Shown here in pieces: positions 2,020 through 52,636 of a DNA stretch of 64,000 nt (positions are counted from its first letter, which is position 1; every line of letters begins with the position of its first letter). Under the pieces are notes generated by a model. That model saw only the letters and a program-made list of their open reading frames with translations. It searched no databases and was not told the origin of the DNA. The stretch covers positions 9,205-73,204 of the forward strand of contig JBBTTC010000003.1 in the NCBI GenBank assembly GCA_038064435.1. The letters are read 5' to 3'. This DNA is from Patescibacteria group bacterium. Lineage in GTDB: Bacteria; Patescibacteriota; Minisyncoccia; Phycocordibacterales; JACOZG01. Made by a program: the position numbers and the translations under genes.

Positions 2020-3720
2020 TTAAACCTTAACCACGCGCAAGACTTCTTCCAGCGCCGTGGCGCCAGACAAAACTTTCTGCACGCCGTCTTCCAGCATCGT
2101 CGTCATGCCATCACGTCGGGCGGCGGCTAAAATGGAATCGCTGGGCACGCGCGCCACCACTAAAGACTTAACGCTCTCGGTGAGTAAAAGGACTTCAAAA
2201 ATCCCGATGCGCCCAACATAGCCCGAGCCATGGCACACATGGCAACCACCACCGCGATATAAAGTGATTTTGGCCAAGTCGTCGTGGCCTTGGGCGGCCA
2301 AAATCTTTTTCACTTCCAGATCACCGTCAATTGCCTTGATCTCGTCCTCGGTGGGCGCTCGCGAAGCGCGGCAAGAGGGGCACAGGGCGCGCACCAAACG
2401 CTGGCCAATCACCACATTAACGGTCGACGCCACCAAATACGGCTCAATGCCCATGTCGAGAAGACGCGGCAAGGTGGTGGCCGCATCGTTGGCATGGAGC
2501 GTGGAGAGAACAAGGTGACCAGTCATGGCGGAGTTAACGGCGATCCCCGCCGTCTCGCGATCGCGGATCTCACCAACCATAATTATGTCGGGATCCTGAC
2601 GGACAATTGAACGCAAACCGCTGGCAAAAGTTAGACCAGTTTTAGCATTGACTTGTATTTGACTCACTCCCTCCACGCTGTATTCCACCGGATCTTCGAT
2701 GGTGGAAATGTGCACATCACGCTGGTTGAGCACCTTGAGCATGGCATAAACCGTGGTCGTTTTGCCTGAACCAGTGGGGCCAGTGACCAAAATCATGCCG
2801 TGCGGATTGTCTATCGCCTGCCGCACACGCCCTTCGTCGGGCGACTGCAACCCCAAATCAGATAAGGTAAAACGCCGACTGGCTTCCGACAATAAACGCA
2901 AAACGGCATTCTCGCCCTCCGTCACCGGCACAATAGAAATACGCACATCTACTGGTTCGTTTTGAAATTTGAATTGCAGTTTACCGTCCAGGGCCGCGCG
3001 ATGCTCGTCGGTGCGGAGTTTGGCCATAATTTTTAATCGAGCCAAAACCATCTCGCCCAGCGCGCGCGGCAAGGTCAAAACATCGTGCATCACACCGTCG
3101 ATCCGCAAACGCACCAAAGCATGATCACGGTAAGGCTCCAGATGAATGTCGGACGCTTTGTTCTCGTGGCCGTAACTTAAAATAGCGTCGACCAGAGCGA
3201 TCAGTGATTTTTCCTTCTCACTCTCGATCAGGTTGCCACTCAAATGAGCAATTAGTGATTCGACTTCTTTTTTAATTTCTCCGCGATAATAATTGAGGGC
3301 CTCGGCTAATTGTTTGGCTGTGAGATAGTAGCGCTGAACTGGCTGGCCGCTCTTTTTCTCTAACCAGTGACGCATCTCGGCATCGTCTGGGTCGCGCATG
3401 GCCACCCGGAGTCCATCTTTGTCCGAGCGCCAAACAATCAGGCCGCGGCTACGAGCCGCGGCCTCGGGCACAGTGAGCATGGTCTCAACGTCAATTTGCT
3501 CTTGCGCCAGATTAAAAAACTTTACCCCGTAAGCCTCGGCTACTAACTGGCCCAAGTCGGCATCACGAATCAAGTCCTTGCCCACCAGTACGGTGGGCAA
3601 GTCGGTGCCCGCCGTGGCCGCTTCGGCGGCCGCGGCGTCAAACTGCTCGGCGGCAATATGGCCGGGCAACACCAAAAGTTCACGTAGCTTGGTCGGCTCA
3701 AGCATGGAACGGCTGACCAT
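2020..3720 (-). CDS. pilB: Type IV pilus assembly ATPase PilB (GspE family)
   Basis: 566 aa; N-terminal GSPII_E_N-like region, Walker A GPTGSGKTTT, IEDPVEY, GEIRD, C-terminal CxxC...CxxC zinc motif. Confidence 0.9.
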   Translation of the reverse strand: MVSRSMLEPTKLRELLVLPGHIAAEQFDAAAAEAATAGTDLPTVLVGKDLIRDADLGQLVAEAYGVKFFNLAQEQIDVETMLTVPEAAARSRGLIVWRSDKDGLRVAMRDPDDAEMRHWLEKKSGQPVQRYYLTAKQLAEALNYYRGEIKKEVESLIAHLSGNLIESEKEKSLIALVDAILSYGHENKASDIHLEPYRDHALVRLRIDGVMHDVLTLPRALGEMVLARLKIMAKLRTDEHRAALDGKLQFKFQNEPVDVRISIVPVTEGENAVLRLLSEASRRFTLSDLGLQSPDEGRVRQAIDNPHGMILVTGPTGSGKTTTVYAMLKVLNQRDVHISTIEDPVEYSVEGVSQIQVNAKTGLTFASGLRSIVRQDPDIIMVGEIRDRETAGIAVNSAMTGHLVLSTLHANDAATTLPRLLDMGIEPYLVASTVNVVIGQRLVRALCPSCRASRAPTEDEIKAIDGDLEVKKILAAQGHDDLAKITLYRGGGCHVCHGSGYVGRIGIFEVLLLTESVKSLVVARVPSDSILAAARRDGMTTMLEDGVQKVLSGATALEEVLRVVKV

Positions 3721-6569: not shown

Positions 6570-7322
6570 TCACGCTTTGTTTAAAGAATCAAGCGCCGCT
6601 AACGCGGCTTCAATGTCGGCCGGCAGTTCAGCCTCCAGCGCCAAACGCTCGCCACTCGGGCTGGCGAGCTCGAGGCGCCAAGCGTGGAGAGCCTGTCGAC
6701 CCAAGCCCGGCAAACACGGCCGCCCGGGAGCATAGAGGTGGTCGCAAACAATGGAATGACCAAGCGCCTTGAGGTGAACACGCAACTGATGAGTCCGGCC
6801 GGTTTGCGGCGCGAGCTCCAACCAGCTGTAACCGGGCCAAGTTTCCAACCGTCGATACTTGGTAACGGCGGCGCGCAAACGCCCACTGGCCGCCGGGCCG
6901 GCCGAGCGCTGACTCGGGTGGCGCCGACTGCGGCCAATCGGCAAATCAATAATTCCAATCTGATTTTTGACCTCACCATAAACCAGCGACAAATAAGTTT
7001 TTTTGATTAGTCGATCATGGAATTGTCTCTTCAAATACTCCAACGCGGCGTCGGTTTTGGCCACAATCAAGAGACCACTGGTGTCACGATCAAGACGATG
7101 CACAATCCCCGATCGTTCCGGATCCGAACCAACTTGCCAACCGGCGCAATAGCGCGCCTTAAGCCACGCCACAACAATTGGACTTCCACTGCGAGGTGCG
7201 CCATGCACCAGCCAGCCGGCTGGTTTATTGAGAACCAAAAGATTGCTGTCCTCGTAAATCGGCGCTGGTTCGAGCATAACGATAACGATAATTGATAACC
7301 ACGGCGGCCGCCAGCGCGCCAA
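6570..7322 (-). CDS. rluA: RluA-family pseudouridine synthase (true start probably internal, near 7277, MLEPAPIYED)
   Basis: HRLDRDTSGLLIVAKTDAALEYLKRQFHDRLIKKTYLSLVYG catalytic-Asp motif. Confidence 0.8.
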   Translation of the reverse strand: MARWRPPWLSIIVIVMLEPAPIYEDSNLLVLNKPAGWLVHGAPRSGSPIVVAWLKARYCAGWQVGSDPERSGIVHRLDRDTSGLLIVAKTDAALEYLKRQFHDRLIKKTYLSLVYGEVKNQIGIIDLPIGRSRRHPSQRSAGPAASGRLRAAVTKYRRLETWPGYSWLELAPQTGRTHQLRVHLKALGHSIVCDHLYAPGRPCLPGLGRQALHAWRLELASPSGERLALEAELPADIEAALAALDSLNKA

Positions 7323-7866
7323 TGAAATTGAAAACTAGGTCAAGCGAAGTGTTCCAGTAGCCGCCCACACCAGTCTGATCGAGCATTACCACGGCGGCAA
7401 ACTCGATCATCTCGTTGAACGCGCCCAGCCCCATACCACCAAGCACGATCAGTGGAAAAAGCACTCGCCAATTAATTGTTGTACTCAAATATGGTCGCAA
7501 CAGATGATAAAAAACCAAGGTCGCCACGGCGAAGCCAAAAAAATGAACGAGTTGGTCAAACTTTAGCACCAGTGATTCGCCGGAGCCGAAGAGGTGCAGG
7601 ATCGGCAGTTTGTAAAGCACTTGACCACCGAGACGCACGCCGCCACCAGCCATGTGCATTAAACCCCAAAGCGATAGGCCGCCAAGAATCAAATTATCAA
7701 ACTTGGTGCGAGGCAGAGTAAGTAAAATGAGTCCAATTATTGCCGAGGTTACTAACACGTACCACAAAAATTCGTAATTCCGAATCGATAAATAGTAGAT
7801 GGCGAAGCCGGCAATATACAGGGCATTAATCGTTGCCAACCATTTTTGTGAGGCCGTTAGGGACAT
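7225..7866 (-). CDS. Polytopic membrane protein (hypothetical)
   Basis: 213 aa with about 6 hydrophobic helices; overlaps the annotated RluA 5' end. Confidence 0.5.
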   Translation of the reverse strand: MSLTASQKWLATINALYIAGFAIYYLSIRNYEFLWYVLVTSAIIGLILLTLPRTKFDNLILGGLSLWGLMHMAGGGVRLGGQVLYKLPILHLFGSGESLVLKFDQLVHFFGFAVATLVFYHLLRPYLSTTINWRVLFPLIVLGGMGLGAFNEMIEFAAVVMLDQTGVGGYWNTSLDLVFNFIGALAAAVVINYRYRYARTSADLRGQQSFGSQ

Positions 7867-7880
7867 GTTAAAATCATAGC

Positions 7881-8531
7881 ATGTTTCGTCGCTCGGGTTT
7901 TACTTTAGTCGAACTTCTAGTGGTGATAGCGATTATCACCTTGTTATCAAGCATTGTGATTGCCAGCATGAGCGAAGCTCGGGAAAAGGCAAAAATTGCT
8001 CGAACACAAGAAGAGCTAACCAGTATCAGAAACGCTGTGACTCTACTTCAACATGATACCGGTAAGTGGCCCTGTGGATGCTTGCCGGGCCAATTGATCG
8101 AGCCGGAAGTTTCTATTAACAGCGTCCAAGCGGGATTAAGAACATCGCCACTGCCTGGTTTTCGGTGCCCAGAAGACCTAAGCCCAGAATGCGGCTGGAC
8201 AGCTGAAGATGTTTCCAAATGGAAAGGTCCCTACGTTAATTTTGATCTTGTGGATCCGTGGGAAAATGATTATCGCTACGATTCAGATTACTTTCCGCTT
8301 ATGAATCGGCAGACACCATGCGGTAGCGCGGCCTGCAATCGTTGGCAATGCCCCGATGCTCCAGCCGCAGTATCGGGCCTTGGAAATGGTGATACACCGC
8401 CGCCAAACTGGCGTCGATCGGCAGTATATTCCTTTGGGCCAGCACCTCTGACTCAATTCATTTATGACGCCCCCTGTTTTACCACGGGCGACTGTTACGG
8501 TTGTCGGGAAGTGTACGCACCACTCTATTAA
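7881..8531 (+). CDS. Type IV pilin-like protein with prepilin N-terminal cleavage/methylation motif and Cys-rich C-terminal domain
   Basis: MFRRSGFTLVELLVVIAIITLLSSIV: class III signal (G/FTLVE) followed by a hydrophobic helix; multiple Cys in C-terminal half. Confidence 0.7.
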   Translation: MFRRSGFTLVELLVVIAIITLLSSIVIASMSEAREKAKIARTQEELTSIRNAVTLLQHDTGKWPCGCLPGQLIEPEVSINSVQAGLRTSPLPGFRCPEDLSPECGWTAEDVSKWKGPYVNFDLVDPWENDYRYDSDYFPLMNRQTPCGSAACNRWQCPDAPAAVSGLGNGDTPPPNWRRSAVYSFGPAPLTQFIYDAPCFTTGDCYGCREVYAPLY

Positions 8532-8931
8532 GTTCTATCGCTGTGAGTATTTACGACACCTTCATAACCTATTTTAGCAGAAATCAGACCTGATTACCCC
8601 TTCATCCACCCCTTCATCGGCTCTGCTACCGGATGAAGGGGCAAGAAGGACAATATCTCTAACAAACACGGGAGATTTTGCCCCTTACTCCTCGCAAAAG
8701 CGAAGTCCGACTTCACTACGGAAAGAGGGTCGCTCCGCTCCGGCCTGCTGGCCTCCGCTCCGCGAATGTCGCGGGGGTTGCGTTTGGGTGGCTCGGCCTT
8801 CTCGTTCCGTCCTGCTGTTTCTTTTTGCTCGTCGTGGGGGGGTAATTTAAGACGGGGAAAAAGGAAGGACGGAACGATGAAGGCCTCGGTTCGGGGGTCG
8901 GTTAGGCGTATAATGACAATATAACGCTTCT

Positions 8932-9795
8932 ATGTCAAAACCGCGCTTAAAACCATTTCAACGCTCTGGGGTGGCCGACCCCCTCAAATTGCAGCCCCGC
9001 GACATCGCTCTCCTCCGCGATGTGGCCGAGTTTCGTTTTCTTAACTCTGGGCAGATTCTCGCGCTTCACGAGGGAAGTAAACGCAACCTCCAAGAACGGC
9101 TGACCCGTCTTTTTCAGCACGGCTATCTTGACCGTCCCGTGAGCCAAACCACCGCCAATCTGCCTTCCACTCACATCGTTTACTCACTCGGCCGCAAAGG
9201 AGCGGAGTTCCTCTCCAAGAACGCGGAGGAGCGCGAAGGGATTTATCGCCGCCTCGCCGAATCTGAACGCACGCTTCCCCTGATTGCTCACTCGTTGATG
9301 ATTTCCCAATTCCGCGTCTGTCTCTCGCTCGCGACGAAGCAAAGCGGAGTAAAAGTCGTTCACTGGTTTCAAGGGCAAGATTTAAAAAATCTTTTACATT
9401 CGGTTCACGGCGAAAATCCCTCATTAGTGCCGGACGCATTTTTTACGCTTGAAGAAAAAGGAGATGTTATCAACTTTTTTGTGGAAGCTGACCGAGGAAC
9501 GATGACGACGGAAAGGTTTGTAAATAAATTAAAAACATATTGGTCGTGGCGTAGCGACGACAGGTTGAAAGAGAAACTTCGCCTTGCCCGTTTCCGCGTC
9601 CTCACTCTCACCCCGTCCGAAGGACGGAGCGAGAGTTTACGGAACGCTGGAAAGGGCGGTGACCCGCGAGGAGAAGGAAGTTTGATGTTTTTATTCACGC
9701 CCGAAACTCAATATAATTTATCCGACCCCAAAAAGTTGTTAGAGCCGATTTGGAAGTCGCCGAAAGACGACACATCTCACACGATTTTGGAATAA
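8932..9795 (+). CDS. Replication-relaxation family protein (plasmid/ICE-associated; hedged)
   Basis: 287 aa; N-terminal LRDVAEFRFLNSGQILALHEGSKRNLQERLTRLFQHGYLDR pattern typical of Replic_Relax-family (winged-helix-like) proteins of actinobacterial plasmids/ICEs. Confidence 0.5.
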   Translation: MSKPRLKPFQRSGVADPLKLQPRDIALLRDVAEFRFLNSGQILALHEGSKRNLQERLTRLFQHGYLDRPVSQTTANLPSTHIVYSLGRKGAEFLSKNAEEREGIYRRLAESERTLPLIAHSLMISQFRVCLSLATKQSGVKVVHWFQGQDLKNLLHSVHGENPSLVPDAFFTLEEKGDVINFFVEADRGTMTTERFVNKLKTYWSWRSDDRLKEKLRLARFRVLTLTPSEGRSESLRNAGKGGDPRGEGSLMFLFTPETQYNLSDPKKLLEPIWKSPKDDTSHTILE

Positions 9796-9874: not shown

Positions 9875-10495
9875 ATGGGATTATTCAGCTTCAACAAAGC
9901 ACCGGAAATTAGGGACGAAAATATCGCTCAAGAATGGTCGCAACTTGTGCTTCAAATGGGAAACAGGGGCGAAGAACTCCTCAAAAGAATCGCTCACAAG
10001 ATTCAGGAGTTAAACTTGCCGCTCGTTACGCTTATGCGAGAAGAAGCGACGCTCGGCAGTTCCAACAATCGCTATAATTTTGTTTCCGTAATGCACGAGA
10101 AGTATCCTGACTACAAGGTTTGGATAGGAGCTATTGACCGAATGGGGCAACTTAAAGTTTCGTGGTTCTTGGTCGTTAAGTTACCGAATGTCATAACCGC
10201 CAAAATGCGGGATTTGAATCGCGCGTCTCGTGGCGGCAAGGAAAGGGTGTTGCGACCGGGACAACGGCTCGGCCGAATGCTCGGAGCAAAACTCTCCGAA
10301 AAGATTACCGGAAAGCCGACTCCGGTTCGTGTGCGTCCCGACGAATTGACGATGGACGATAAGGAAGAATACGGCGTGTTTATGTCGCTCATTCACCAAG
10401 CGACGACCTCCAGTTTGGGGGAGATGATGAACGAGCTTAACTTGGACTTCACCAAAGTGGACACGCACACCGAGGGCTTCGTTAATCTTTCGTAG
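9875..10495 (+). CDS. Hypothetical protein (island cargo)
   Basis: 206-aa ORF, no recognisable motif, low GC. Confidence 0.4.
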   Translation: MGLFSFNKAPEIRDENIAQEWSQLVLQMGNRGEELLKRIAHKIQELNLPLVTLMREEATLGSSNNRYNFVSVMHEKYPDYKVWIGAIDRMGQLKVSWFLVVKLPNVITAKMRDLNRASRGGKERVLRPGQRLGRMLGAKLSEKITGKPTPVRVRPDELTMDDKEEYGVFMSLIHQATTSSLGEMMNELNLDFTKVDTHTEGFVNLS

Positions 10496-10497
10496 TT

Positions 10498-12486
10498 ATG
10501 GATAATGATTTTGTAAAACAACTTCGGAATTTCTTTACGAAGCCGAAGTCCGAGCCGGTATTGCCTATTAAGTCGCAGGAGCCGCTCGTGCGTTCTCGCG
10601 CTCCCAATCCTAACGAGCTTGCTTTAGGTTGGGCGGGAGGCAAAGATGAAACGAACGGGCAGGAAGTCCACCAACTTAAAGGGGTGTCCCAAGAAGTCCG
10701 AGACACTCATTTTTATATTATTGGTGCTTCAGGAAGCGGTAAAACGCGATTTTTAGAAACACTCATCAAGCAAGATATAGAAAACGATTTGGGCTTTGGC
10801 GTAATTGACCCGCACGGCGACCTTACGGAAGACATAAAAGGTTATCTCTATCTCTTACACAAAGACGACCCTAAATTTCTCCAAGAGAATATCGTTTTGA
10901 TTGACCCGACTAACAAGGAACAAGTTGTTGCTTTCAATCCACTTGAAATAACAAAAGGAGAATCGGCCGCGTCCATAGCTTCTGAACTCACGGAAGCGTT
11001 TAAGAAAATCTGGCACGACGCTTGGGGAGCGAGAATGGAGGATTTGTTGAAAAATACCCTCATCGCCCTTATTCAAAATAATCTCACGCTTGCCGAACTT
11101 CCACTATTTTTGACCGATACGGAAGTGCGTCGCAAGATTTTGGGAAAAGTAGAACACGGCGTAAGCCGCCAGTATTTTAATAGGTTTAATAGTTTACCTC
11201 GCAGAACACAGGACGAGTGGGCGGAATCCACGCTCAACAAAGTAAACGCTTTTTTGTTTGATAACAGTATTCGGCAACTGCTCGCTTCACCAAAAAGCTC
11301 TTTCAATCTGCGGGAAGCGATGGACGAGGGCAAGCTGATCCTCGTCAAGCTGGATAAGGGCAGATTGAAAGGAAGTGCTGACTTGTTGGGTTCTTTACTA
11401 CTCGCCAAAATACAGGCGGCGGCGTTCTCCCGAACGGACACGCCGGAACTGCAACGCAAGAAGTTTTATCTTTACATAGACGAGTTTCAAAATTTCGCTA
11501 CCGAAAATTTTATAACTATGCTTGGCGAGGCTCGCAAGTATCGGCTCGCTCTTTTGCTTGCTCATCAAAATCTCGCTCAACTGCCGACGACTTTAAGGGC
11601 TTCCATTCTCTCTAACTGTGGACTTCAAGCATATTTCAGAATCTCACGGGACGATTCCAACATTCTTGCGAAAGAATCTCTTGCCTCAATTTATAACGAG
11701 CCGACCGGATGGGAGAGTTATATCCAAGCACTCCAAGAATTGCCTAGTCGTGCTTGCGTTATTAAAAATAAAGTTGACGGCGGAGTTATCGCCGTTCGGA
11801 CGCTTGATTTGCCGTCTCCTCACGAAGTCGCGGAAACAGAAGAAAAAGAATTTGCGGAGGAAATCGCGGCTTGTGAGATAGGAAAAAAATATCTGCGAGG
11901 ACGAGAGGATATTGAGAGAGATAGCCGAGTAAGACGAGAAACTCTTTTGGCTACCAAAGAGCCAGAGAGCTTTAGAGAAAAGAAAATGACCGAAGATATA
12001 AATTATGAGGAAATTATAAAAGGCGGAGAGAATGACTATGTGGAGTTCAAGTCATCAATCCGATACGACTACAAAAACGGAGGAAAAAGCAAATCAATTG
12101 AATATGTTATCTCCAAAGCAATTTCTTCGTTTATGAATACGGACGGCGGAAGGTTGTTTGTTGGTGTGGACGATTTCGGTGAAATTAGCGGAATAGAAAA
12201 TGATTATGCCGATGTTCACCATAAAAACAAAGACGGCTTTCTACTCCAATTAAACAACATCATTAACCATTATATCGGCAAAGAATTTCACCAGTATTTG
12301 AGAGTTAAAATTATGCCAATCAAAGAGAAAGATGTATGCGTCATTGAGGTAATTAAAAGTAAAACTCCGGTATTCTTGAAAGACGGAGACAAAGAGGAAT
12401 TTTATATGAGAGCGTCCGCCGCTTCACAACCAATGAGCGTTAGGCAAGCCAACGAATACATCAGGACCCATTTTCACGGAAGATAG
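10498..12486 (+). CDS. TraD/VirD4/FtsK-HerA-superfamily P-loop NTPase fused to C-terminal AlbA_2 (Schlafen-like) putative DNA-binding domain
   Basis: Walker A HFYIIGASGSGKTRFL, VIDPHGDL, Walker B YLYIDEFQNF, TraG-D_C-like LLLAHQNLAQL; C-terminal about 160 aa (YVEFKSSIRYDYKNGGKS...FMNTDGGRLFVGVDDFGEISGIEND) matches the AlbA_2/Schlafen fold signature. Confidence 0.6.
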   Translation: MDNDFVKQLRNFFTKPKSEPVLPIKSQEPLVRSRAPNPNELALGWAGGKDETNGQEVHQLKGVSQEVRDTHFYIIGASGSGKTRFLETLIKQDIENDLGFGVIDPHGDLTEDIKGYLYLLHKDDPKFLQENIVLIDPTNKEQVVAFNPLEITKGESAASIASELTEAFKKIWHDAWGARMEDLLKNTLIALIQNNLTLAELPLFLTDTEVRRKILGKVEHGVSRQYFNRFNSLPRRTQDEWAESTLNKVNAFLFDNSIRQLLASPKSSFNLREAMDEGKLILVKLDKGRLKGSADLLGSLLLAKIQAAAFSRTDTPELQRKKFYLYIDEFQNFATENFITMLGEARKYRLALLLAHQNLAQLPTTLRASILSNCGLQAYFRISRDDSNILAKESLASIYNEPTGWESYIQALQELPSRACVIKNKVDGGVIAVRTLDLPSPHEVAETEEKEFAEEIAACEIGKKYLRGREDIERDSRVRRETLLATKEPESFREKKMTEDINYEEIIKGGENDYVEFKSSIRYDYKNGGKSKSIEYVISKAISSFMNTDGGRLFVGVDDFGEISGIENDYADVHHKNKDGFLLQLNNIINHYIGKEFHQYLRVKIMPIKEKDVCVIEVIKSKTPVFLKDGDKEEFYMRASAASQPMSVRQANEYIRTHFHGR

Positions 12487-12915
12487 AGAGAAGCAGGTTT
12501 GACATTATATGAAAGTATGTCATAGCATTCCCAGAACCTTGCCCGTATGGGTAAGGTCTCAAGGGGGTCCGTATGGATTCCCTTGTTCCTTTTTTGGATT
12601 GAAGAAGAACTAAACCGCCCGCCGTTAATAAGGTTCGGACTTAAAAGAAAATTGCGTCTTGCCTTTCCGTTGAAAATCGCGTTGCGATTTCCATCGTCGG
12701 GCTTGCGCTTGCGATTTTCTTTCGCGTCCTTCGCGCCCGACAGAAAAAAGACTTCGCGGACAGCTTTACTCATTGAAAGATCGCTTGGCGATTTTCAATT
12801 CGGCCTGCTCCGCTTTTTTCTTCGGTCGCCATTTATACCCCCACCCAACCACCCTTCCGAGAGCGCGAAAGAATGATTTGATTTATTTTTCCCAATCCAT
12901 CTATACTTTGTATAG

Positions 12916-13236
12916 ATGGATAACGAGGGTGAGAAAAAAGAGATTGATTGGGGTCAAGAATCCGTTAATGCCCTAAACAGAAGTCAGACAAGCAAAACTG
13001 AAAAAGCGAAAGAAATCGCAGAAGTTCAGTTAAAAGCTTATAAACACATAGATGATGTGGTAAAGCATTTCGGGCCTCCAGATAGAGAATTTTTTAATAG
13101 CCTCACGTTAATTACGGGTGTTATTCCGCTACTTTTCGCCCTTCTTTTTTTCGCTAACGCAGACCCGGGGGAAGAATGGGTGGGAGGTCTCCTAATCTTC
13201 GTGGGGATTTATGGATGGTGGTGGTCTATCAAATAA
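12916..13236 (+). CDS. Small membrane protein (hypothetical)
   Basis: 106 aa; C-terminal two hydrophobic helices; palindrome ccatctatacTTTGtatagatgg overlaps start. Confidence 0.4.
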   Translation: MDNEGEKKEIDWGQESVNALNRSQTSKTEKAKEIAEVQLKAYKHIDDVVKHFGPPDREFFNSLTLITGVIPLLFALLFFANADPGEEWVGGLLIFVGIYGWWWSIK

Positions 13237-13458: not shown

Positions 13459-14961
13459 TTGTCTTTGGAAAAGAAACTACGGGAAACAGTTTTTACTCCT
13501 TTGGACGAACAACATTTAGAAGAAATAGAATCGCTTGGAGAAACGACTTTCAGGGAACAGCGTAGGGCGTTCGGCATAAAGACGAAAGACCGCCGCAATC
13601 ATATCTACATTATCGGTAAAACGGGAACGGGCAAATCTACCTTATTAAAAAATATGGTGATTCAAGACTTGCGCTTGAATCACGGCGTTGCTTTGATTGA
13701 CCCGCACGGCGACTTGGTTGAAGACTTATTAAATTACATTCCGAAAACTCGCACGAACGAAGTTGTCTATTTCAATCCTGCGGACAAAGAAAATCCGGTC
13801 GCTATCAATATTCTTGAAGCTAAAGGCGACGACGAAAAACATCTCGTCGCTTCATCGCTCATTTCTGTTTTTCGTCATTTGTGGCGGGACTTCTGGGGTC
13901 CCCGCCTTGAACACATTTTATACAACTGCGTCTTGGCTTTGATGGACACGCCCGGGCAAACCTTGCTCGGCGTATATCGTATGCTTGTGGACAACGAGTT
14001 TCGGAAACTTATTGTCGGGAATATCCAAGACCCGATTGTAAAAATGTTTTGGGTTGATGATTATGAAAACTATGACGAGCGTTTTCGTAAGGAAATAATC
14101 TCACCCGTTCAAAACAAAGTCGGACAACTTCTTACCAGTCCCCAAATGCGAAATATTGTCGGCCAACCCAAAAGTTCGGTGGACTTCGGTTTTGTTATGG
14201 ACAATAAAAGAATCCTCTTAGCCAACTTATCCAAGGGGAAAGTATGCGGCCTTATCCGGTGCGGAACTTGTGGTATGGGCATTACCGCCGAGCGGAAAAC
14301 GAAATACCAAAAGAACGGGAATGTTCACCACTACACCTATTATCGTTGCTCCCGAAAAAATAAAGCCGTCAAATGCTCCGAGCCGCCCATTCGGGAGGAG
14401 TTGCTTGATAAGCAACTATCAAATCTACTCCAACCCTACAAAATGCCGCCGGATTGGGCGACCGAGATTTCCAAGATGTCCGACAGGGACGAGAAGGAAG
14501 CCATCCAATCCGCGTCCGCCATCGTTCAAGGGTATAAAGCCGAGATACAAGCCATCTCTCAAAAACTCCAACGCCTTCTTAACGCATATCTTGACCAAGA
14601 TATTGAGCGGGAAGCATACCGCTTAGAGAAGGCAAACCTTCTCTCCCGCAAGAAGTCGTTGGAGGAGAAAATGGCCGAAGTCGCAAAGGGGGTATCCGCT
14701 TGGGTTGAACCCCTGCGCGATTGGTTGAAAGACGCGCAAATGCTTAACGAAATACACGAAGACGCCCCTCTTTCTCTTAAAAAATCTTTCGCCAAAAAAA
14801 TCTTCGGGTTGAACCTGACACTTCACGCGCGCGAAGCGCGCGGCGTTGCGGAAATTCAATGGGCTTCCGTTGCGGAAGCCCATCAAAAAATTGGAAAAAC
14901 TGATACTTGTTTGTTCTTGGTGCGCGGTGAGGGACTCGAACCCCCGGCCTACCCGGTGTAA
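13459..14961 (+). pseudogene. Chimeric ORF: N-terminal TraD/FtsK-like ATPase paralog (truncated after Walker A half) fused in frame to zinc-ribbon + coiled-coil tail of a large serine recombinase; reads into tRNA-Val
   Basis: NHIYIIGKTGTGKSTLL...ALIDPHGDL parallels ORF 10498 up to ...LSKGKV, then CGLIRCGTCGMGITAERK...HHYTYYRCSRKNK (recombinase zinc beta-ribbon) and a coiled-coil; last 14 codons translate tRNA-Val sequence. Confidence 0.5.
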
Positions 14962-14993
14962 ACGGGTTGCTCTACCAACTGAGCTAACCGCGC
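14918..14993 (-). tRNA. tRNA-Val (anticodon TAC), CCA encoded
   Basis: RC: GCGCGGTTAGCTCAGTTGGTAGAGCAACCCGTTTACACCGGGTAGGCCGGGGGTTCGAGTCCCTCACCGCGCACCA; anticodon loop TTTACAC. Confidence 0.85.
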
Positions 14994-15971: not shown

Positions 15972-16528
15972 GGTTGGTGAGTAACCGGCACCCTCACGTC
16001 GAGCGTAATATCAAAGTCAACCTGGCGATTTTTAATCAGGTCCGACACTGGTGACTCAATATTACTAAATATCGGCTCCGACTTGAGCGCCGCCACCCAA
16101 TCTAGTAAAACCGCCCGCGTCGTAGCTTGACCCGACATCTTAATCTCCCCCTCCACGTCAGAATGACGTAAGTAGTGGATGGACCCAAGACTAATACCGG
16201 CAGGACGCAAGCTGATCAATTTAGTTAGTAAAGCTGCCGTTCGATGATCACTCTCCAGCCATTGGCGAAAGGTGGTGAGACGTTTCGCCGATTCGGCAAG
16301 TTCAACCCGCAAACGATCAAAGCGTTGCACGTCAACTACTCCCAGCACTTGCGCCAACTCTCGTTCTAGCTGCCGACGCTCGGTGACTATCCGCAAATAA
16401 AATGACCCCACCATCAAGCTAGCCAACACCAAGAGCACTGCCAACAAAAATCCGGCCAAAATAAAACGGCGGCGGCGATAATCGCGGCGGCGAGCTAGAC
16501 GATCAATCGGCAACAATAAGTTAATCAT
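15968..16528 (-). CDS. pilN: Type IV pilus assembly protein PilN
   Basis: N-terminal INLLP motif (MINLLLPIDR), basic stretch, single TM, coiled coil. Confidence 0.7.
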   Translation of the reverse strand: MINLLLPIDRLARRRDYRRRRFILAGFLLAVLLVLASLMVGSFYLRIVTERRQLERELAQVLGVVDVQRFDRLRVELAESAKRLTTFRQWLESDHRTAALLTKLISLRPAGISLGSIHYLRHSDVEGEIKMSGQATTRAVLLDWVAALKSEPIFSNIESPVSDLIKNRQVDFDITLDVRVPVTHQP

Positions 16529-17616
16529 GAAGTGAGGTGGAAACGACGCAACGCCAAACCGAGCGAAGTTGCGTAACGCAAGGATTGATTAAGATTAATA
16601 CTCGGGATATATTCATCGAGCGAAAATAAATTAGTCCACACATTGCCCAGAGCCACCGGTAAACCTAAACTCAAATTAAGATAATCGACCAAGCCGGGTA
16701 AGGTAGCTTGCCCGCCGCACAAGATGACGCGCCCAATTTTATTGGTCGACGTAGCAGTGGCACTTTGGTGAGTCAACCAATAACTTAACTGCTTGTTAAT
16801 CTCATCGCGCAACACCGAGACCAACGGCACAATCGCAAAAAAAGTTTCGCGATTGGCGGCCGAAGGCAAAAAACCACGTTCGACCTTGTAGCGTTCCGCC
16901 GTGTTGTAATCAGTGCCGAGTGTTTTCTCCAGTGCATGAGTAATATCTTCCCCTCCAATGTTGTTGACGGTTGACGTCCAGAGCACCTGCCGACCGCGCG
17001 TGACAAAAAAACTGGTCCGTGTTTTGCCAAAATCTACCACCATCACCAAATCACCGGCGGCCGATGTTTGAGCCACCACCGCTCGCACCACCGCTTGCGC
17101 CTCAATCTCCATAGCCTCGGCCACCAACCCGCCGGCGGCCACCACCCCAGCATAGGCGGCCACGATTCTCTTCGGCAAGGCCGTCACGGCCACCTCCAGC
17201 TTGGCTCCGCGCGAAACAATTTCATAATCAAAAACCGTATCGGCGACAGCGAGCGGAATATGCTCTTCCAACTGCAATTCCAAACTGCCACGAACATCGG
17301 CCTCATCCATGAGTGGTAGGGCCAAGCGCACCAAATACGCTTCCTCCTCTGGCAAAGACACGGCCACCTGACGAAAGCGGGCCCGTCGACTCAAGGCCAA
17401 CAACACCTTAGCCAAAACTTCAGGTTGCTTAATTTCTCCGGCCTCCACGGCCCCGGCCGGCACTGCCTCGTCACCATAATCTATGAGACGCAGGCCGGCC
17501 GGCCCGTAATTTAGTCGCACAAATTTAACTGACCGATCAGAGATGTCAAGACCCACCGCCGCCGGCGCCAAATAATGCGGCGGCGGGAACAAACGCAAAA
17601 ATTTATCATGAGCCAT
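16525..17616 (-). CDS. pilM: Type IV pilus assembly protein PilM (actin-like ATPase fold)
   Basis: 363 aa; VGLDISDRSVKFVRL N-terminus, FtsA/PilM-like glycine motifs (DFGKTRTS, ILCGGQA). Confidence 0.8.
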   Translation of the reverse strand: MAHDKFLRLFPPPHYLAPAAVGLDISDRSVKFVRLNYGPAGLRLIDYGDEAVPAGAVEAGEIKQPEVLAKVLLALSRRARFRQVAVSLPEEEAYLVRLALPLMDEADVRGSLELQLEEHIPLAVADTVFDYEIVSRGAKLEVAVTALPKRIVAAYAGVVAAGGLVAEAMEIEAQAVVRAVVAQTSAAGDLVMVVDFGKTRTSFFVTRGRQVLWTSTVNNIGGEDITHALEKTLGTDYNTAERYKVERGFLPSAANRETFFAIVPLVSVLRDEINKQLSYWLTHQSATATSTNKIGRVILCGGQATLPGLVDYLNLSLGLPVALGNVWTNLFSLDEYIPSINLNQSLRYATSLGLALRRFHLTS

Positions 17617-18319: not shown

Positions 18320-18328
18320 ATAAAACTG

Positions 18329-18364
18329 GAGGGGTGGCAGAGTGGTCTATTGCACCGGTCTTGC
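18329..18364 (+). repeat. 36-nt direct repeat = orphan copy of tRNA-Ser 5' half (positions 1-36, ends at anticodon TG)
   Basis: ggaggggtggcagagtggtctattgcaccggtcttg identical at 18329..18364 and 18630..18665; followed by two GC hairpins (cccgcc-aga-ggcggg; tccgcc-tcc-ggcgga). Confidence 0.75.
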
Positions 18365-18629: not shown

Positions 18630-18666
18630 GGAGGGGTGGCAGAGTGGTCTATTGCACCGGTCTTGA
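18401..18666 (+). CDS. GIY-YIG family nuclease (free-standing, about 88 aa)
   Basis: MACIYILHSRSANRFYVGSSRE...LAAHNAGK...YRPWILIKCEDFPNYTVARKRENFLKSGQG: GIY...YVG, R, HN, E motifs of COG2827-type GIY-YIG; ORF terminates on the anticodon TGA of tRNA-Ser. Confidence 0.7.
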
Positions 18667-18717
18667 AAACCGGAGTCCGCCTTGTGTGGACCGTGAGTTC
18701 GAATCTCACCCCCTCCG
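18630..18717 (+). tRNA. tRNA-Ser (anticodon TGA), long variable arm
   Basis: GGAGGGGTGGCAGAGTGGTCTATTGCACCGGTCTTGAAAACCGGAGTCCGCCTTGTGTGGACCGTGAGTTCGAATCTCACCCCCTCCG; anticodon loop CTTGAAA. Confidence 0.85.
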
Positions 18718-29742: not shown

Positions 29743-31437
29743 ATGCTGGAATTTAAAGAGGAAAAACAATTACAAAAAGTTAACGAACTTCACTATAAAG
29801 AAGCAGAAGATCTGGCCCAAATCCTCTCACAAAAATACCAGCTCCCCTACATTGACCTCACTAAGTTTGCCGTCAATACCGATGCCCTGCGTTTAATCGA
29901 CGAAAATGACGCTCGAGCTGGCCGTTTGGCCGCCTTTAAGCTGGTGGGTAAAAATATTTATATTGTCACCACTTCGCCCGAACAAGAAACAGCACAAAAA
30001 ATATTGGCGGGGCTTAAAGATAAGGGCTACCGACCGGAGTTACACCTAGCATCGGAGGCCAGTTTGGAGCGCGCTTGGAGTCGCTACGAGGAAATTTCTC
30101 ACGCCACGCGCACCGAGGCGGGGATGATTAATCTGTCGCCAGATCGCATCAAAGAATTTCTGTCAGCCATCACTGACCTGAATAGTTTTAAAGATAAATT
30201 TGCCACCATTACCGCCAACCCCGAGGCGGGTGGTACTTCTGATATTCTGGAAATTATTTTGGCCGGCGGTTTGGTTACCGGCGCTTCCGACATTCACTTT
30301 GAACCCGTAGAAAACAGTGTGCGTCTGCGCTACCGCCTCGATGGTGTTTTACACGACATTACCTTCCTCCAGTCGGCCACCTATCACCGACTGCTCTCGC
30401 GAATTAAATTAATTTCCGGTCTCAAGCTTAACATTACTAGTGCCGCGCAAGACGGTCGTTTTAGTTTAGTTCTGCCCGATACCGAGATCGAATTCCGAGT
30501 ATCAATTTTGCCGGGCGCCTATGGTGAATCGGTCGTCACGCGCATTCTCAACCCGGATTCCATCCGCATCGGCTTCGATAATCTCGGCCTCGACGAGCAC
30601 CTGCAAACTATCCTTGAGCGACAAATCCGCAAACCCAACGGCTTACTCTTACTAACCGGCCCCACCGGCTCGGGTAAAACCACCACGCTCTACGCCCTGC
30701 TCAACCAGATCAATTCTCCCGACACCAAAATCATCACTATCGAAGATCCAATTGAGTACCATCTGGCCGGAGTGAATCAAACACAAGTCAATCCAGAGAA
30801 AAATTATACCTTTATAGACGGTCTGCGTTCGGCCCTACGTCAAGATCCCGATGTGATTATGGTGGGCGAAATTCGCGATGGCGAAACAGCTAAAATTGCC
30901 ATCAATTCCGCTCTCACCGGCCACTTGGTGCTTTCCACCCTGCACACCAATAACGCGGCCGGGGCTATCCCACGCCTGGTGGATCTCGGCGTCAGTGCCA
31001 AAATACTTGACTCGGCGCTAGACATCAGTCTGGCTCAACGTTTGATACGACGTCTATGCCCCGATTGCCGCCGCCTGGCGCCACCGACGGCTGAAGAAAA
31101 AAAGTTGGTTGAACAAATTGCCGCCGGCATCAGGAGGCGGCGACCCGACTGGTCGCCGCCAGCAGATTACCAGCTGGCGGCACCAGCCGAGGGTGGTTGC
31201 GCCACTTGCCACCATACTGGCTTTCGCGGCCGGATCGGAGTTTTTGAAGCCATCATAATGGACGCGGCCGTGGCACAACTATTGGTCGATAATCCCAGCG
31301 AGCGAGAAATCGCCCGGGCGGCCGAACCGCAAGGCATACTGGCCATGGCCGAGGACGGATTACTTAAGGTCCTAGCTGGCACCACCTCGCTCGCCGAACT
31401 GGCGAGAGTGGTTAATATCGAGAATCTAAACCTCTAA
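29743..31437 (+). CDS. GspE/PilB-family secretion ATPase (second paralog)
   Basis: 564 aa; GSPII_E_N-like N-terminus, Walker A LLLTGPTGSGKTTTLY, IEDPIEY, GEIRDGET, Cys4 zinc motif CPDC...CATCHH. Confidence 0.85.
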   Translation: MLEFKEEKQLQKVNELHYKEAEDLAQILSQKYQLPYIDLTKFAVNTDALRLIDENDARAGRLAAFKLVGKNIYIVTTSPEQETAQKILAGLKDKGYRPELHLASEASLERAWSRYEEISHATRTEAGMINLSPDRIKEFLSAITDLNSFKDKFATITANPEAGGTSDILEIILAGGLVTGASDIHFEPVENSVRLRYRLDGVLHDITFLQSATYHRLLSRIKLISGLKLNITSAAQDGRFSLVLPDTEIEFRVSILPGAYGESVVTRILNPDSIRIGFDNLGLDEHLQTILERQIRKPNGLLLLTGPTGSGKTTTLYALLNQINSPDTKIITIEDPIEYHLAGVNQTQVNPEKNYTFIDGLRSALRQDPDVIMVGEIRDGETAKIAINSALTGHLVLSTLHTNNAAGAIPRLVDLGVSAKILDSALDISLAQRLIRRLCPDCRRLAPPTAEEKKLVEQIAAGIRRRRPDWSPPADYQLAAPAEGGCATCHHTGFRGRIGVFEAIIMDAAVAQLLVDNPSEREIARAAEPQGILAMAEDGLLKVLAGTTSLAELARVVNIENLNL

Positions 31438-47020: not shown

Positions 47021-47348
47021 GAACGATTTTTTCAGCTTTTTGACTAAGCAGGGTGGTAGCTATCGCAATGGTCCAGCCCGGGAGGATGTTTAAAAACGGC
47101 ACGGCTTCGATGAGGGCGGCCACCGCTAGGGTGGCTTGCCGTTTAAATTGCCTTTGCACTATTCCCGACCAGCCACTGACCAGTATAAACCAGACAAAAA
47201 AAGTTAACCACGCTATCACGTCAATCGGAATGGTAAAGAGCGCGCCCGCTCCAGTTAAGCTTAATAAAAATTGAATGGCGTCAAAACATAAAGCCACGGC
47301 CACCATGGCGGCTTTGATAACAAAATTAATGTCGCGCGGTTTGCTCAT
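46998..47348 (-). CDS. Small polytopic membrane protein (T4SS-like cluster)
   Basis: 116 aa, 3-4 TM helices; overlaps neighbours. Confidence 0.4.
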   Translation of the reverse strand: MSKPRDINFVIKAAMVAVALCFDAIQFLLSLTGAGALFTIPIDVIAWLTFFVWFILVSGWSGIVQRQFKRQATLAVAALIEAVPFLNILPGWTIAIATTLLSQKAEKIVRGNNEDY

Positions 47349-49188
47349 TGTTGCTGGCCTGGTTTAGGTCTTGGCGAGCTTTTTTTATAGCCAGAATCTG
47401 CGACGGGTCGGAGGTAATGATTTGGTCTTCGGTGTATGAAGCAATGATCTTCATGGCCACATGTTTGAGACCAGCAAAGAAAATTCCTTCGCCGACCGCC
47501 GACTCAAGCAGGAGATATTTTTCCTCATCGGTGAGCTGGAAAGTTTTTTGCACTAAGTCGATGGAGGCCGGTGATTGCTTGAGGAGCAATTGCAAAGACG
47601 AGTTGGTAATGATGGGCAAGCCGTAATCGGAGCGCAAGAAGTCACCCACATCTTGAGTGATGGTGGCCACGCCTAAATAATATTTGCGGCCGCGTTTAAC
47701 GAGCGAGAAAAGGAACGAAGCTGTGTCTTTGGACTTCATCATCCACCAAGCCTCATCAATTACCAACAGGCGTTTCTTGAGTGTGCGGCGGATGGCGTTC
47801 CAAATGTTGTGCATAACAATGTACATAGCCACCGGCTTGAGTTCATCTTCCATGTCGCGCACCGAGAAAACCACAAACTTTTTGTTAATGTCGACATTGG
47901 TTGGCCGGTTGAGAAAATTTGCCCAAGTGCCTTGGGTATATTTGAGCAAGCGTTGCGCCAGCGAAGCACCACCCTCCATGCCAGCCAAGACCAGCTCTAG
48001 GTCGGAGAGTAGGGGCGCCGGCTTGTGGCCAAAGTCGGTGTCGGCGGTGATATCTTTTAGAGCGTAAGTTTCGGTAATGGCGCTGTCGATAATGGCATCC
48101 TCTTCCGTCGTTAGTCCGCCCAACATGATGCGAAACAGTCCGACTAGGTTGATGATGTGTGAGCGCAAAACATCGGCCGGCGATTCGTCCTCGCGAGGAA
48201 AAGGTAAATCAAACGGATTGATGTGATGCTCGGAGGTGAGGGAAATATTAAAATAACGTCCGCCTACCGCCTCGGCCAAAAACTCGTATTCCCGCTCCGG
48301 GTCGATGACGATCACGTCAGTGTCGAACATCAAGCTACGCAAAATTTCTAGCTTGGTGGTGTAGGATTTGCCGGCGCCAGACTTGGCAAAAATCACCGAG
48401 TTGTAATTTTCTAGCGAGAAGCGATCAAAGAGCACTAGACTGGAATTGTGGCGATTGATGCCATAGAGAATACCGCGATTGGACGTTAGGTCAAAAGAAA
48501 CAAAGGGAAATAAGCTCGAGAGCGGCGCCGAATTGAGCTTGTAGTTAATTTTTAGCAAGTCATTGGCCGCTGGCAAAACGCTTTTAAAACCCTCGGCTTG
48601 TTGAAACAAAGCCGGCTTGAGATAAACCAGCTTGGCGTCAAGAATAGATTTAATTTCCGCCTCGGCGCGGTCAAGCTCGTCGTCGCTTTGGCCGTAGATA
48701 GTGATGTACAGGCCAACATCAAAAATGCGCTCGCGCGCTTGCTGGAGTGAGTCGCGGAGTTTCTCGATGTCTTCGTGGGCGGTGTCGAGCACCGGATCGC
48801 GCACCATCCCCCGTTCTTCCTTCAGACTAATTTGGCTTTGCACCTCGGCCACCTTTTTTTCCAACTGGCGCAGGGCGATGGTGGTGTCGATCGGGTGAAT
48901 AAAAATGGAAACGTCAAAAACCTTGTCCAAATTAATGACGGGTGAAAACCAATCATCAGTTAGAAACCGCGGATAAGAAATAACAAAAAAGGTGCGAGCT
49001 AGCTTATCGCCGAGATGGAGACGGCGGGGTGTGATCTCCAGAGCCGATGGCGCGACAATATCTTTGAGCTCTAGGACGCCCAATTGGTAAATATCTTTGG
49101 GTAGAATTGGTGTGAGATTGCCGGCCGATGTGGTTTTTGCTTTCGAGAAGATCGCCATGTTAAACGGCCGTGGGCGCGGCGACCTCAC
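47326..49188 (-). CDS. virB4: VirB4/TrbE/PrgJ-family T4SS ATPase, ATPase portion
   Basis: Walker A VIFAKSGAGKSYTTK, VIVIDPEREY, Walker B LLVIDEAWWMM, TQDVGDF. Confidence 0.8.
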   Translation of the reverse strand: MRSPRPRPFNMAIFSKAKTTSAGNLTPILPKDIYQLGVLELKDIVAPSALEITPRRLHLGDKLARTFFVISYPRFLTDDWFSPVINLDKVFDVSIFIHPIDTTIALRQLEKKVAEVQSQISLKEERGMVRDPVLDTAHEDIEKLRDSLQQARERIFDVGLYITIYGQSDDELDRAEAEIKSILDAKLVYLKPALFQQAEGFKSVLPAANDLLKINYKLNSAPLSSLFPFVSFDLTSNRGILYGINRHNSSLVLFDRFSLENYNSVIFAKSGAGKSYTTKLEILRSLMFDTDVIVIDPEREYEFLAEAVGGRYFNISLTSEHHINPFDLPFPREDESPADVLRSHIINLVGLFRIMLGGLTTEEDAIIDSAITETYALKDITADTDFGHKPAPLLSDLELVLAGMEGGASLAQRLLKYTQGTWANFLNRPTNVDINKKFVVFSVRDMEDELKPVAMYIVMHNIWNAIRRTLKKRLLVIDEAWWMMKSKDTASFLFSLVKRGRKYYLGVATITQDVGDFLRSDYGLPIITNSSLQLLLKQSPASIDLVQKTFQLTDEEKYLLLESAVGEGIFFAGLKHVAMKIIASYTEDQIITSDPSQILAIKKARQDLNQASNNEQTARH

Positions 49189-49801: not shown

Positions 49802-49830
49802 ATTGTAACATGACTGGCCACTTTTAAGAA

Positions 49831-50705: not shown

Positions 50706-50707
50706 GA

Positions 50708-52633: not shown

Positions 52634-52636
52634 AAT

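Follow-up and report, generated by a model that had tools for sequence, protein, structure and literature searches.

A coupling-protein-like ATPase with a C-terminal Schlafen domain in a putative mobile module of a Patescibacteria group bacterium

Prokaryotic Schlafen (pSlfn) nucleases have only recently been shown to act as anti-phage effectors on diverse sensors. PMC13056530 counts 55 architectures of pSlfn fusions, and DUF262-Slfn is one of the two for which defence in E. coli has been shown experimentally (PMC13056530). Here we describe a further fusion, A1-Schlafen, encoded at positions 10498 to 12486 of a 64,000-nucleotide stretch of DNA from a Patescibacteria group bacterium (contig JBBTTC010000003.1), hereafter called the window. 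Patescibacteria are ultra-small bacteria. Like the pSlfn fusions EcoSlfn7 (DUF262-Slfn) and RorSlfn5 (Ig-like-Slfn) (PMC13056530), A1-Schlafen has a single AlbA_2 domain with the Ex4(E/D)xK motif next to a variable partner; it differs from them in that its partner is a TrwB/VirD4-fold ATPase (A1) encoded with a relaxase on a mobile module, and in that its activity is predicted. What appears to be new in A1-Schlafen is the kind of partner and the context, while Schlafen effector fusions themselves are of a known kind, to which the present one would add a DNA-translocase-type partner.

A1 shares the nucleotide-binding and all-alpha domain fold of TrwB (R388), VirD4, Cagbeta and DotL, as well as an adjacent relaxase gene; unlike these, it has no N-terminal transmembrane domain, is not encoded beside virB4 and carries a nuclease tail. 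Among the MOBC modules, CloDF13 encodes the MobC relaxase together with its own coupling protein, MobB, and pAD1 encodes TraX. As in CloDF13, a restriction-endonuclease-like relaxase (RR, a Replic_Relax protein) is combined here with an element-encoded coupling ATPase, and the channel would come from another system. Unlike in MOBC modules, an extra protein (X), a second ATPase paralogous to A1 (A2), long inverted repeats at both ends and a Patescibacteria host characterise the present RR-X-A1-A2 arrangement, for which there is a candidate origin of transfer (oriT).

The mammalian SLFN11 and SLFN13 couple a Schlafen tRNase to a nucleic-acid-dependent P-loop NTPase, as A1-Schlafen would, and in SLFN11 the tRNase is activated by single-stranded DNA bound by the helicase domain (PMC13056530). 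By comparison, the NTPase of A1 belongs to the FtsK/HerA/VirD4 class and not to the superfamily 1 helicases, the order of the domains is opposite and the nuclease is single-lobed instead of two-lobed; the likeness is probably convergent. A1-Schlafen would thus be a bacterial parallel to SLFN11, in which a DNA-binding NTPase gates a tRNase. SIR2-HerA, DUF4297-HerA and DndH also bring an ATPase of the same superfamily, for which a hexamer is expected, together with an effector. Unlike in the HerA complexes and DndH, the effector of A1 is fused and not a separate subunit, the ATPase has the all-alpha domain of type IV coupling proteins (T4CPs), and its gene lies in a relaxase module.

The ATPase core and its Schlafen domain

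The open reading frame (ORF) of A1-Schlafen runs on the + strand from an ATG at 10498 to a stop codon at 12486 and encodes 662 amino acids (aa). An earlier reading made from the sequence alone had proposed a translocase-like ATPase followed by an AlbA_2/Schlafen-like domain; all peptides that it quoted, including YVEFKSSIRY and FMNTDGGRLFVGVDDFGEISGIEND, are present in the translation, and both domain assignments hold. Residues ~30-487 of the protein form a soluble ATPase of the TrwB/VirD4 fold, and a flexible linker leads from there to a Schlafen/AlbA_2 domain at aa ~500-662.

The ATPase core (aa 1-496; 10498..11985, + strand) is assigned to the TrwB/VirD4-like fold by Pfam, the structural model and conserved motifs. 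The Walker A motif, GASGSGKT, lies at aa 76-83, YIDEFQNF at aa 326-333 contains the Walker B residues D328 and E329, and LAHQNLAQL follows at aa 354-362; G76, K82, D328 and E329 are invariant among the aligned homologues. All ATPase-type Pfam matches above cut-off fall within the first 390 aa, namely TrwB_AAD_bind (aa 65-379, E=7e-11, 42 bits against a cut-off of 20.5), DUF87 (E=1e-8), TraG-D_C (aa 323-385, E=9e-7) and T4SS-DNA_transf (E=5e-5), the last three also above their gathering scores. FtsK_SpoIIIE reached 20 bits, under the Pfam cut-off of 24, and matched the P-loop only. The best NCBIfam match was the VirD4-like CD1115 family (conju_CD1115), with 49.6 bits against a cut-off of 250.

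An AlphaFold model of the whole protein, with 40 homologues as input, had a mean predicted local distance difference test (pLDDT) score of 83.5. In this model the N-terminal 30 aa are disordered, the linker at aa 487-500 is of low confidence and an all-alpha insertion is found at aa ~157-261. The top PDB match of the model in Foldseek was the soluble part of R388 TrwB (E=5e-13, ~420 aligned columns), with a template modelling (TM) score of 0.61 on the target at ~14% identity. Cagbeta, DotL, DndH-C, HerA and VirB4 followed, the matches to DndH, HerA and SIR2-HerA having E-values of 1e-9 to 1e-10.

The C-terminal segment, comprising the linker and a pSlfn (AlbA_2) nuclease domain (aa 497-662; 11986..12486, + strand), was identified by Pfam, motif and fold. 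SLFN_AlbA_2 (PF04326) matched aa 511-647 with E=1.7e-17 and 64.5 bits against a cut-off of 25.3, and at the sequence level the PDB matches of the tail were Schlafens only (SLFN12, E=6e-4). When the C-terminal 166 aa were modelled alone, the pLDDT was 89, and the top 30 PDB matches of this model in Foldseek were all AlbA_2, Schlafen or SAMD9 folds (DIP2311, SAMD9 and SLFN5/11/12/13/14). Taken as a whole, the Pfam and structural matches of A1-Schlafen are far beyond chance. The catalytic Ex4ExK motif is kept: E511, E516, F517 and K518 are invariant in 44 homologues (52-100% identical), and D559, which lies in GVxD and by its motif position would be the third catalytic Asp of the SLFNs, is kept in at least 90% of them. 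The Ex4(E/D)xK motif is catalytic in SLFN11 and conserved in the prokaryotic Schlafens that protect E. coli by tRNA cleavage (PMC13056530). Mean identity is 65% for the tail and 64% for the ATPase core, so the two are equally conserved. The tail is a single-lobe Schlafen domain with an intact nuclease motif, tethered to A1 by a flexible linker.

Taken together, A1 is most likely the coupling protein of a mobilisable element and has gained a defence or conflict RNase effector. The reading that we favour, as somewhat more likely than not, is that of a coupling-type mobile module combined with an ATPase-gated Schlafen RNase effector. RR would nick a site in the repeat region, X and A1 would link the DNA to the host's own, chromosomally encoded type IV secretion system (T4SS), and the Schlafen tail would be a conflict or defence effector riding on the A1 motor. 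By analogy with TrwB, A1 would form a hexamer, allowing the single-lobe Schlafen domains to pair up. Engagement of A1 with foreign or aberrant DNA, from a phage or from a competing element, would set off cleavage of tRNA or other RNA by the paired domains, and the result would be growth arrest or a blocked invader. This would be the same logic of a nuclease plus a DNA-sensing NTPase as in SLFN11.

The Schlafen tail as an exchangeable part

A1-Schlafen was compared with database clusters and with related loci or contigs, which are given L-numbers below. Of the best 120 database clusters, 47 have the Schlafen tail (~630-670 aa, down to 52% identity to the query), while the remaining ones are ~500 aa long and end where the tail would start, one of them having 86% identity to the query. 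When clustered at 50%, the entire A1-Schlafen family falls under one representative. The identical NCBI protein is named 'RNA-binding domain-containing protein [Patescibacteria group bacterium]', and the fused relatives carry generic NCBI/JGI names. The sequence-only reading had regarded the architecture as undescribed. With regard to the databases this does not hold, as the fusion recurs there under such names; with regard to the literature, our search returned no paper naming Schlafen together with a coupling protein, the supplementary architecture list of PMC13056530 being outside that search.

The comparison of L001 with L009, which represent the same chromosomal locus at 95-97% DNA identity, is the most direct view of the tail. 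In L001, an insert of 1,497 bp begins precisely where the A1 core ends; it holds the Schlafen domain and an ArdC-N-like gene, both of which are absent from L009. Sister elements with an ATPase 86% identical to A1 and the same RR, X and inverted repeats likewise have no Schlafen domain. The short A1 proteins end in ...ESFREPKKK followed by the stop codon, and the long forms go from ...ESFREKK into the tail; the cassette is inserted a few codons ahead of the ancestral A1 stop codon. In the window, a now non-coding relic of the 3' end and downstream region of a short, Schlafen-less A1 is found at 12601..12729 (+ strand), ~115 bp past the new stop codon. Its counterpart in L009 (7165-7296), with 85.6% identity, includes the stop codon of the 500-aa A1. 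Overlapping ORFs of ~100 aa on opposite strands, with low-complexity translations, occupy 12474-12876 of the window (12547-12876 on the + strand and 12474-12773 on the - strand); they fall within the relic of the former A1 3' region and are probably not genes.

When a neighbour-joining tree was built from the ATPase core, A1 proteins with and without the tail interleaved throughout, and the deepest clade was wholly fused. The tree of the tails is only partly congruent with that of the core (Spearman 0.58). The G+C content of the Schlafen segment is 0.377, the lowest of the island, against 0.454 for the A1 core. Over X, A1 and the remnant of A2 the G+C content varies from 0.38 to 0.49, against 0.51-0.52 in the flanks. 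The comparison of these loci indicates that the Schlafen tail is an optional, exchangeable cassette outside the core of the module.

Outside the A1 family, the nearest tails are those of GmrSD_N/DUF262-Schlafen proteins, with 60-67% identity. A full-length DUF262-Schlafen example is P0276 (707 aa), and in the tail tree the DUF262-Schlafen clade is nested among the A1 tails. The GmrSD part of one GmrSD_N-Schlafen protein matches HEC-05 of PADLOC, and one of the GmrSD_N/DUF262-Schlafen genes adjoins hsdM. In L091, a stand-alone, membrane-anchored protein of 259 aa (7220-7999) combines hydrophobic segments near its N-terminus with a Schlafen domain that shares 46% identity with the A1 tail. Its gene sits in an odd place, within an F-type ATP synthase operon, where it separates the gamma subunit gene from the beta subunit gene; a LAGLIDADG gene is nearby.

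Coupling proteins classically use their C-terminal tails as receptors for the substrate or the relaxosome, and the Schlafen tail could, in the same way, be a catalytically silent nucleic-acid-binding adaptor for recognition of the DNA substrate or relaxosome. Consistent with such a role, A1 has the TraG-D_C ('TraM recognition site') match, the solved relatives of the tail include the DNA-binding AlbA_2 domain of SAMD9 (7ksp), and one A1 homologue has a C-terminal HTH_17 domain and several others have segments resembling a winged helix-turn-helix (wHTH). We nevertheless consider an adaptor unlikely, since the tail is present or absent between near-identical elements, including sister elements at the same locus with an 86% identical ATPase and the same RR and X, and since its E-x4-E-x-K residues are invariant. 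The interleaving of fused and unfused forms in the tree and the exchange of the tail with GmrSD-type defence proteins also argue against it, as does the failure to find a clt-like repeat array in the element.

The adaptor is, in T4CP form, one of the two roles that the sequence-only reading had offered for the tail, namely that AlbA_2 takes the part of the wHTH/gamma domain of TraB/FtsK in recognising a clt-like locus. In that original form the idea had to be abandoned. A1 has the TrwB/VirD4 fold with the all-alpha insertion, and its C-terminus has a Schlafen fold and no wHTH. Because sister elements do without it, the tail cannot be an essential DNA-recognition module, and because a MOBC-type relaxase gene neighbours A1, transfer would be of the relaxase/T4SS type rather than the TraB type acting on double-stranded DNA. 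The 8-bp direct repeats expected of a clt-like site do not form an array in the island, where we found only a 10-mer in three copies inside the left inverted repeat. Given the fold of A1, the relaxase context, the missing repeat array and the invariant Ex4ExK residues, the TraB/clt model was rejected. The other suggestion, a defence-type ATPase-Schlafen fusion carried on an island, is the better supported of the two: the fusion and an island of low G+C content are there, and the role in defence is predicted.

An active-looking RNase on a mobile element could also be a toxin or addiction module, which stabilises the element or excludes or kills competitors instead of acting against phages. An AbiEii toxin-type gene occurs on a related plasmid-like contig, and the tail is intact on the otherwise decayed element of the window. 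This is very unlikely to be the explanation, however, as no antitoxin or immunity candidate is consistently linked to the tail, and in L097 there is no gene at all between A1-Schlafen and A2. Moreover, the frequent and clean loss of the tail makes strong addiction unlikely. The truncation of the window element, which has an A2 pseudogene and no right repeat, raises the further question of a fortuitous, non-functional read-through in a decaying element. We regard this as hardly credible, because at least 44 full-length cluster representatives, with identities down to 52%, have this same fusion, with the junction and the catalytic residues conserved, a tail as conserved as the ATPase and purifying selection seen on the tail.

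In neighbouring A1-like clusters, with an ATPase 47-55% identical, other C-terminal extensions of 120-290 aa are found. Two of these alternative tails have an Rx4H motif and sub-threshold HEPN matches (DUF4145, E=0.031; HEPN_Apea, E=0.082), and several others have a conserved D...E pattern behind a wHTH-like segment. The wHTH-containing tails were also considered as fused Replic_Relax domains, and this was rejected as hhalign detected no similarity to RR. Since Schlafen, HEPN-like and wHTH-containing tails occupy the same place, the C-terminus of A1 is a hot spot at which domains accrete, at least some of them of the nuclease type.

Several points weigh against a coupling-type module with an RNase effector. 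A1 remains far under the NCBIfam cut-offs of the named T4CP families, and no hydrophobic segment or transmembrane helix was detected in A1 or A2, whereas canonical T4CPs are defined by their N-terminal anchor. A1 passes the tests for a coupling protein on fold, motifs and relaxase linkage, the last seen as a Replic_Relax/MOBC gene two genes upstream in the window, in the RR-X-A1-A2 loci and on the plasmid-like contig; it fails on the membrane anchor and the curated score, and, although descended from T4CPs and predicted to work like them, it is not a canonical T4CP. With regard to the effector, PADLOC detected no known defence system in the module and the neighbours of A1 had no matches, AlbA_2 domains with the same motif are also found in proteins annotated as regulators, and the receptor role of classical coupling-protein tails has been mentioned above. 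The label HEPN-like for the alternative tails is based on sub-threshold matches and the Rx4H motif, the D...E pattern of the wHTH-containing tails is possibly PD-(D/E)XK, judged by eye, and the homologue with the wHTH tail ending in HTH_17 is consistent with a binding role. Furthermore, a conjugative role is doubted for most Patescibacteria T4SSs (PMC12102498).

The RR-X-A1-cargo-A2 module and its inverted repeats

The module is small and specific to Patescibacteria, and its gene order is inverted repeat, RR, X, A1 (with or without a tail), variable cargo, A2 and inverted repeat; RR-X-A1-cargo-A2 was found in this order in every long contig with a close A1 homologue. In the window, RR (8932..9795, + strand) is a 287-aa Replic_Relax protein with a PD-(D/E)XK-type nuclease (PF13814, E=9e-27, 94.8 bits against a cut-off of 25.3). 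It also matches the PHROG 'replication initiation by nicking' (3.7e-15), and D168 and E185/D187/R188 are invariant in six homologues; no match for RR was found in the PDB sequence search. Replic_Relax is a PD-(D/E)XK family (PMC3424549) and the Pfam signature of MOBC relaxases, equated with MobC (PMC5357655). Protein X (9875..10495, + strand), defined by its position, has 206 aa and no match in Pfam, NCBIfam, PADLOC, PHROG or PDB. Its homologues lie immediately upstream of A1 in L001, L005, L006, L009, L011, L012, L097, L100 and L102 and are present in every module variant.

The cargo slot between A1 and A2 is, depending on the element, empty or occupied by an ArdC-N-like gene and an S49 peptidase, by DUF6119 or by several genes including a tyrosine recombinase. 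In the window, A1-Schlafen is followed by ~1 kb of poorly coding sequence, in which a small ORF of 106 aa with one predicted transmembrane helix (12916..13236, + strand) is a putative gene, and then by a 500-aa ORF at 13459-14961. A2 is ~35% identical to A1 and is better conserved between elements (63-92%). The first part of the 500-aa ORF (13459..14244, + strand) encodes a 262-aa N-terminal fragment of A2, 86-92% identical to A2 of L009 and L001. The homology stops exactly after ...ANLSKGKV (nucleotides 14244/14245), ahead of Walker B, so the A2 of the window is a pseudogene. Fused to it in frame is the C-terminal part of a large serine recombinase (14245..14961, + strand), consisting of a zinc ribbon and a coiled coil (Zn_ribbon_recom, E=4e-10, aa 264-322) and also giving CcrC/XisF-type matches and a PHROG integrase match. 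The joint reading frame runs into the gene of tRNA-Val (14918-14993, - strand). Neither the C-terminal half of A2 nor a resolvase N-terminal domain was found anywhere in the window. Together with the chimera at 13459-14961, this points to a deletion or rearrangement that took the right end of the element. The element of the window is decayed, having lost the right repeat and half of A2, with RR, X and A1-Schlafen intact.

Five independent elements are bounded by inverted repeats of about 120-320 bp per arm. The arms are 287 bp long and 99.65% identical in L001 (5874-6160 and 13503-13789), 317 bp and 97.8% in L006 (6125-6441 and 12810-13125), at least 122 bp and 100% in L005 (1-122 and 13864-13985), 119 bp and 94% in L097 (1-119 and 5426-5544), and 159 bp and 80% in L009. 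The repeats are thus near-identical within an element (94-100% in four of the five) yet divergent between elements, with the exception of the inner ~130 bp, ending in TTTTTGCTCGT-N-GGGGGG, which are conserved. The core motif is confined to RR-X-A1-A2 loci and is present as an inverted pair wherever both ends of an element are on the contig. The sole copy left in the window is the left inverted-repeat region (8527..8846, + strand), which matches the right repeat of L009, read as its reverse complement, at 93% identity and aligns with both arms of L001, L005, L006 and L009. It contains the 10-mer CCCCTTCATC three times (two direct and one inverted copy, 8597-8641), and these are its only exact copies in the window; the same three-copy pattern is found in other elements, with a sequence that co-varies between them. 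The inner core, TTTTTGCTCGTCGTGGGGGGG, lies at 8822-8842. The repeat core has a conserved small hairpin, with no convincing covariation, and no target-site duplications are evident outside the repeats. The left repeat region is a candidate cis site, which could be an oriT, a transposon-like end or a site of inversion or recombination.

Most elements have no integrase, L005 having a tyrosine recombinase and the window only the serine-recombinase fragment. Two more distant settings were found. A plasmid-like contig with a distant A1 homologue encodes a methylase, ParA, a Rep_O-like protein, RR, X, A1, DUF3800 and AbiEii, and another distant A1 homologue, without a separate RR, lies between RuvC/X and a tyrosine integrase; in both settings X directly precedes A1. 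In the plasmid database the relatives of A1 were only 23-32% identical (Streptomyces, Bacillus and archaeal plasmids) and RR had no match; a relative of A1 from Sulfitobacter lies beside a serine recombinase, without RR or X.

The whole RR-X-A1(-A2) module could instead be a defence system, with HerA/FtsK-class ATPases as motors or sensors and with RR and the tails as nuclease effectors. A1 resembles mad8, DndH and HerA in PADLOC and the structures of DndH-C, HerA and SIR2-HerA, it has no membrane anchor, most elements are without an integrase and some lie beside SIR2-HerA or type III and type I restriction systems, and swappable nuclease-like tails are typical of conflict systems. The PADLOC matches of A1 are, on the other hand, at the level of the ATPase only (mad8 with 5e-15, DndH and HerA), and in structure as well as family searches A1 comes closest to coupling proteins (TrwB, Cagbeta, DotL and the CD1115 VirD4-like family). 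In addition, long inverted repeats bound the module and no other MADS, Dnd or SIR2 components are adjacent to it in the window. We find a defence system of this kind improbable, because RR belongs to the MOBC relaxase family, RR-X-A1 is encoded together with ParA and Rep on a plasmid-like contig and X-A1 beside a tyrosine integrase, and an ArdC-N-like anti-restriction gene is among the cargo. Membership in MADS in particular was rejected, as the mad8 match is limited to the ATPase level, further mad genes are missing and the MADS preprint gives no annotation for mad8.

The RR-X-A1-cargo-A2 units might form a hitherto unrecognised class of Patescibacteria mobile elements using the host T4SS, in which A1 doubles as an immune sensor that reads DNA arriving or leaving and controls interchangeable RNase tails (Schlafen, HEPN-like). 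We consider this doubtful; if true, immunity would be hard-wired to a DNA-transfer motor. The A1-type elements, inverted-repeat-bounded or plasmid-like, are candidates for DNA movement and for defence cargo among the largely uncultured Patescibacteria.

Two other origins were considered and rejected. Integration targeted to tRNA genes was suggested by the tRNA-Val that the window element abuts, but related elements are not beside tRNAs. For a viral origin, the relatives in IMG/VR are too distant (at most 36% identical).

With regard to the surroundings of the elements, the right-hand flanks of L001 and L006 resemble each other. Beside the element, L001 (14047-19891) encodes a DUF87/HerA protein with SIR2_2 and a type III restriction-modification system, and L006 (13376-17497) encodes DUF4411, an M78 peptidase and a type I restriction subunit. 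A 509-541-aa protein with PT-HINT/intein-like matches is encoded directly to the left of the element in L001 (4235-5860) and also in L009 (2097-3626). In the window, the left repeat starts at 8527, a few bases before the end of a pseudopilin ORF (8531).

Distribution of the ATPases and other features of the window

A word-indexed search gave 3,277 matches of A1 homologues at E<=1e-5, and all named relatives are from candidate-phyla-radiation bacteria. At least 597 stretches encoding a relative were found in contigs of one genome per species. Among the 80 of these loci that were compared, nearly all encode an A2-type ATPase alone, without RR, X or A1. In the A2-type loci L013-L089, a protein with a sigma-70-region-4-like helix-turn-helix is encoded upstream in 47 of 76 and a ~440-aa membrane protein in 27 of 76; murG, ftsQ and ftsW usually lie downstream. 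Many database relatives have 700-1,000 aa and carry the ATPase in their C-terminal half. Together with the upstream membrane protein, this suggests that the A2-type is a T4CP with a membrane part that is encoded separately in some genomes and fused to the ATPase in others. Long inverted repeats are generally absent around the A2-only loci. Since the A2-type alone is widespread without RR, X, A1 or such repeats, it would be the core coupling-protein homologue of Patescibacteria, and the RR-X-A1 set would be sporadic and mobile. The plasmid-like and integrase-linked settings of the distant A1 homologues support this division.

In PMC12102498, 5,713 VirD4-like genes were reported from 2,918 Patescibacteria genomes, almost all away from virB4 and with a role left unresolved, as well as 58 MOBC relaxases and, over all classes, 39 relaxase genes close to a t4cp. 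Our comparison separates two VirD4-like types, of which A2 is core, chromosomal and usually beside a membrane protein, and A1 is sporadic, always with X and usually with a MOBC relaxase gene.

The window itself encodes a VirB4/TraG-like ATPase beside dnaA (47326..49188, - strand; P-loop_TraG, 1.5e-25, with AAA_10 and DUF87), 35 kb away from A1 and not adjacent to it. Large genes without Pfam matches surround it at 44675-56745 (- strand), right beside dnaA (42008-43378); dnaN lies at 40700-41812, and the G+C content dips at 41-44 kb. A chromosomal T4SS near dnaA and the origin has been described for Patescibacteria (PMC12102498), and the cluster of the window fits this description and could provide the channel for transfer.

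An Rfam scan of the window returned tRNAs only. A 36-bp perfect direct repeat is present at 18328-18363 and 18630-18665; the second copy is the 5' part of a tRNA-Ser gene (18630-18717) and the first lies 302 bp upstream of it. The repeat may be what remains of the attachment site of a different integrated element. Finally, type IV pilus and competence genes are scattered in the window, encoding two PilB-type T2SSE ATPases (2020-3720, - strand, and 29743-31437, + strand), PilM (16525-17616, - strand) and the pseudopilin (7881-8531, + strand).

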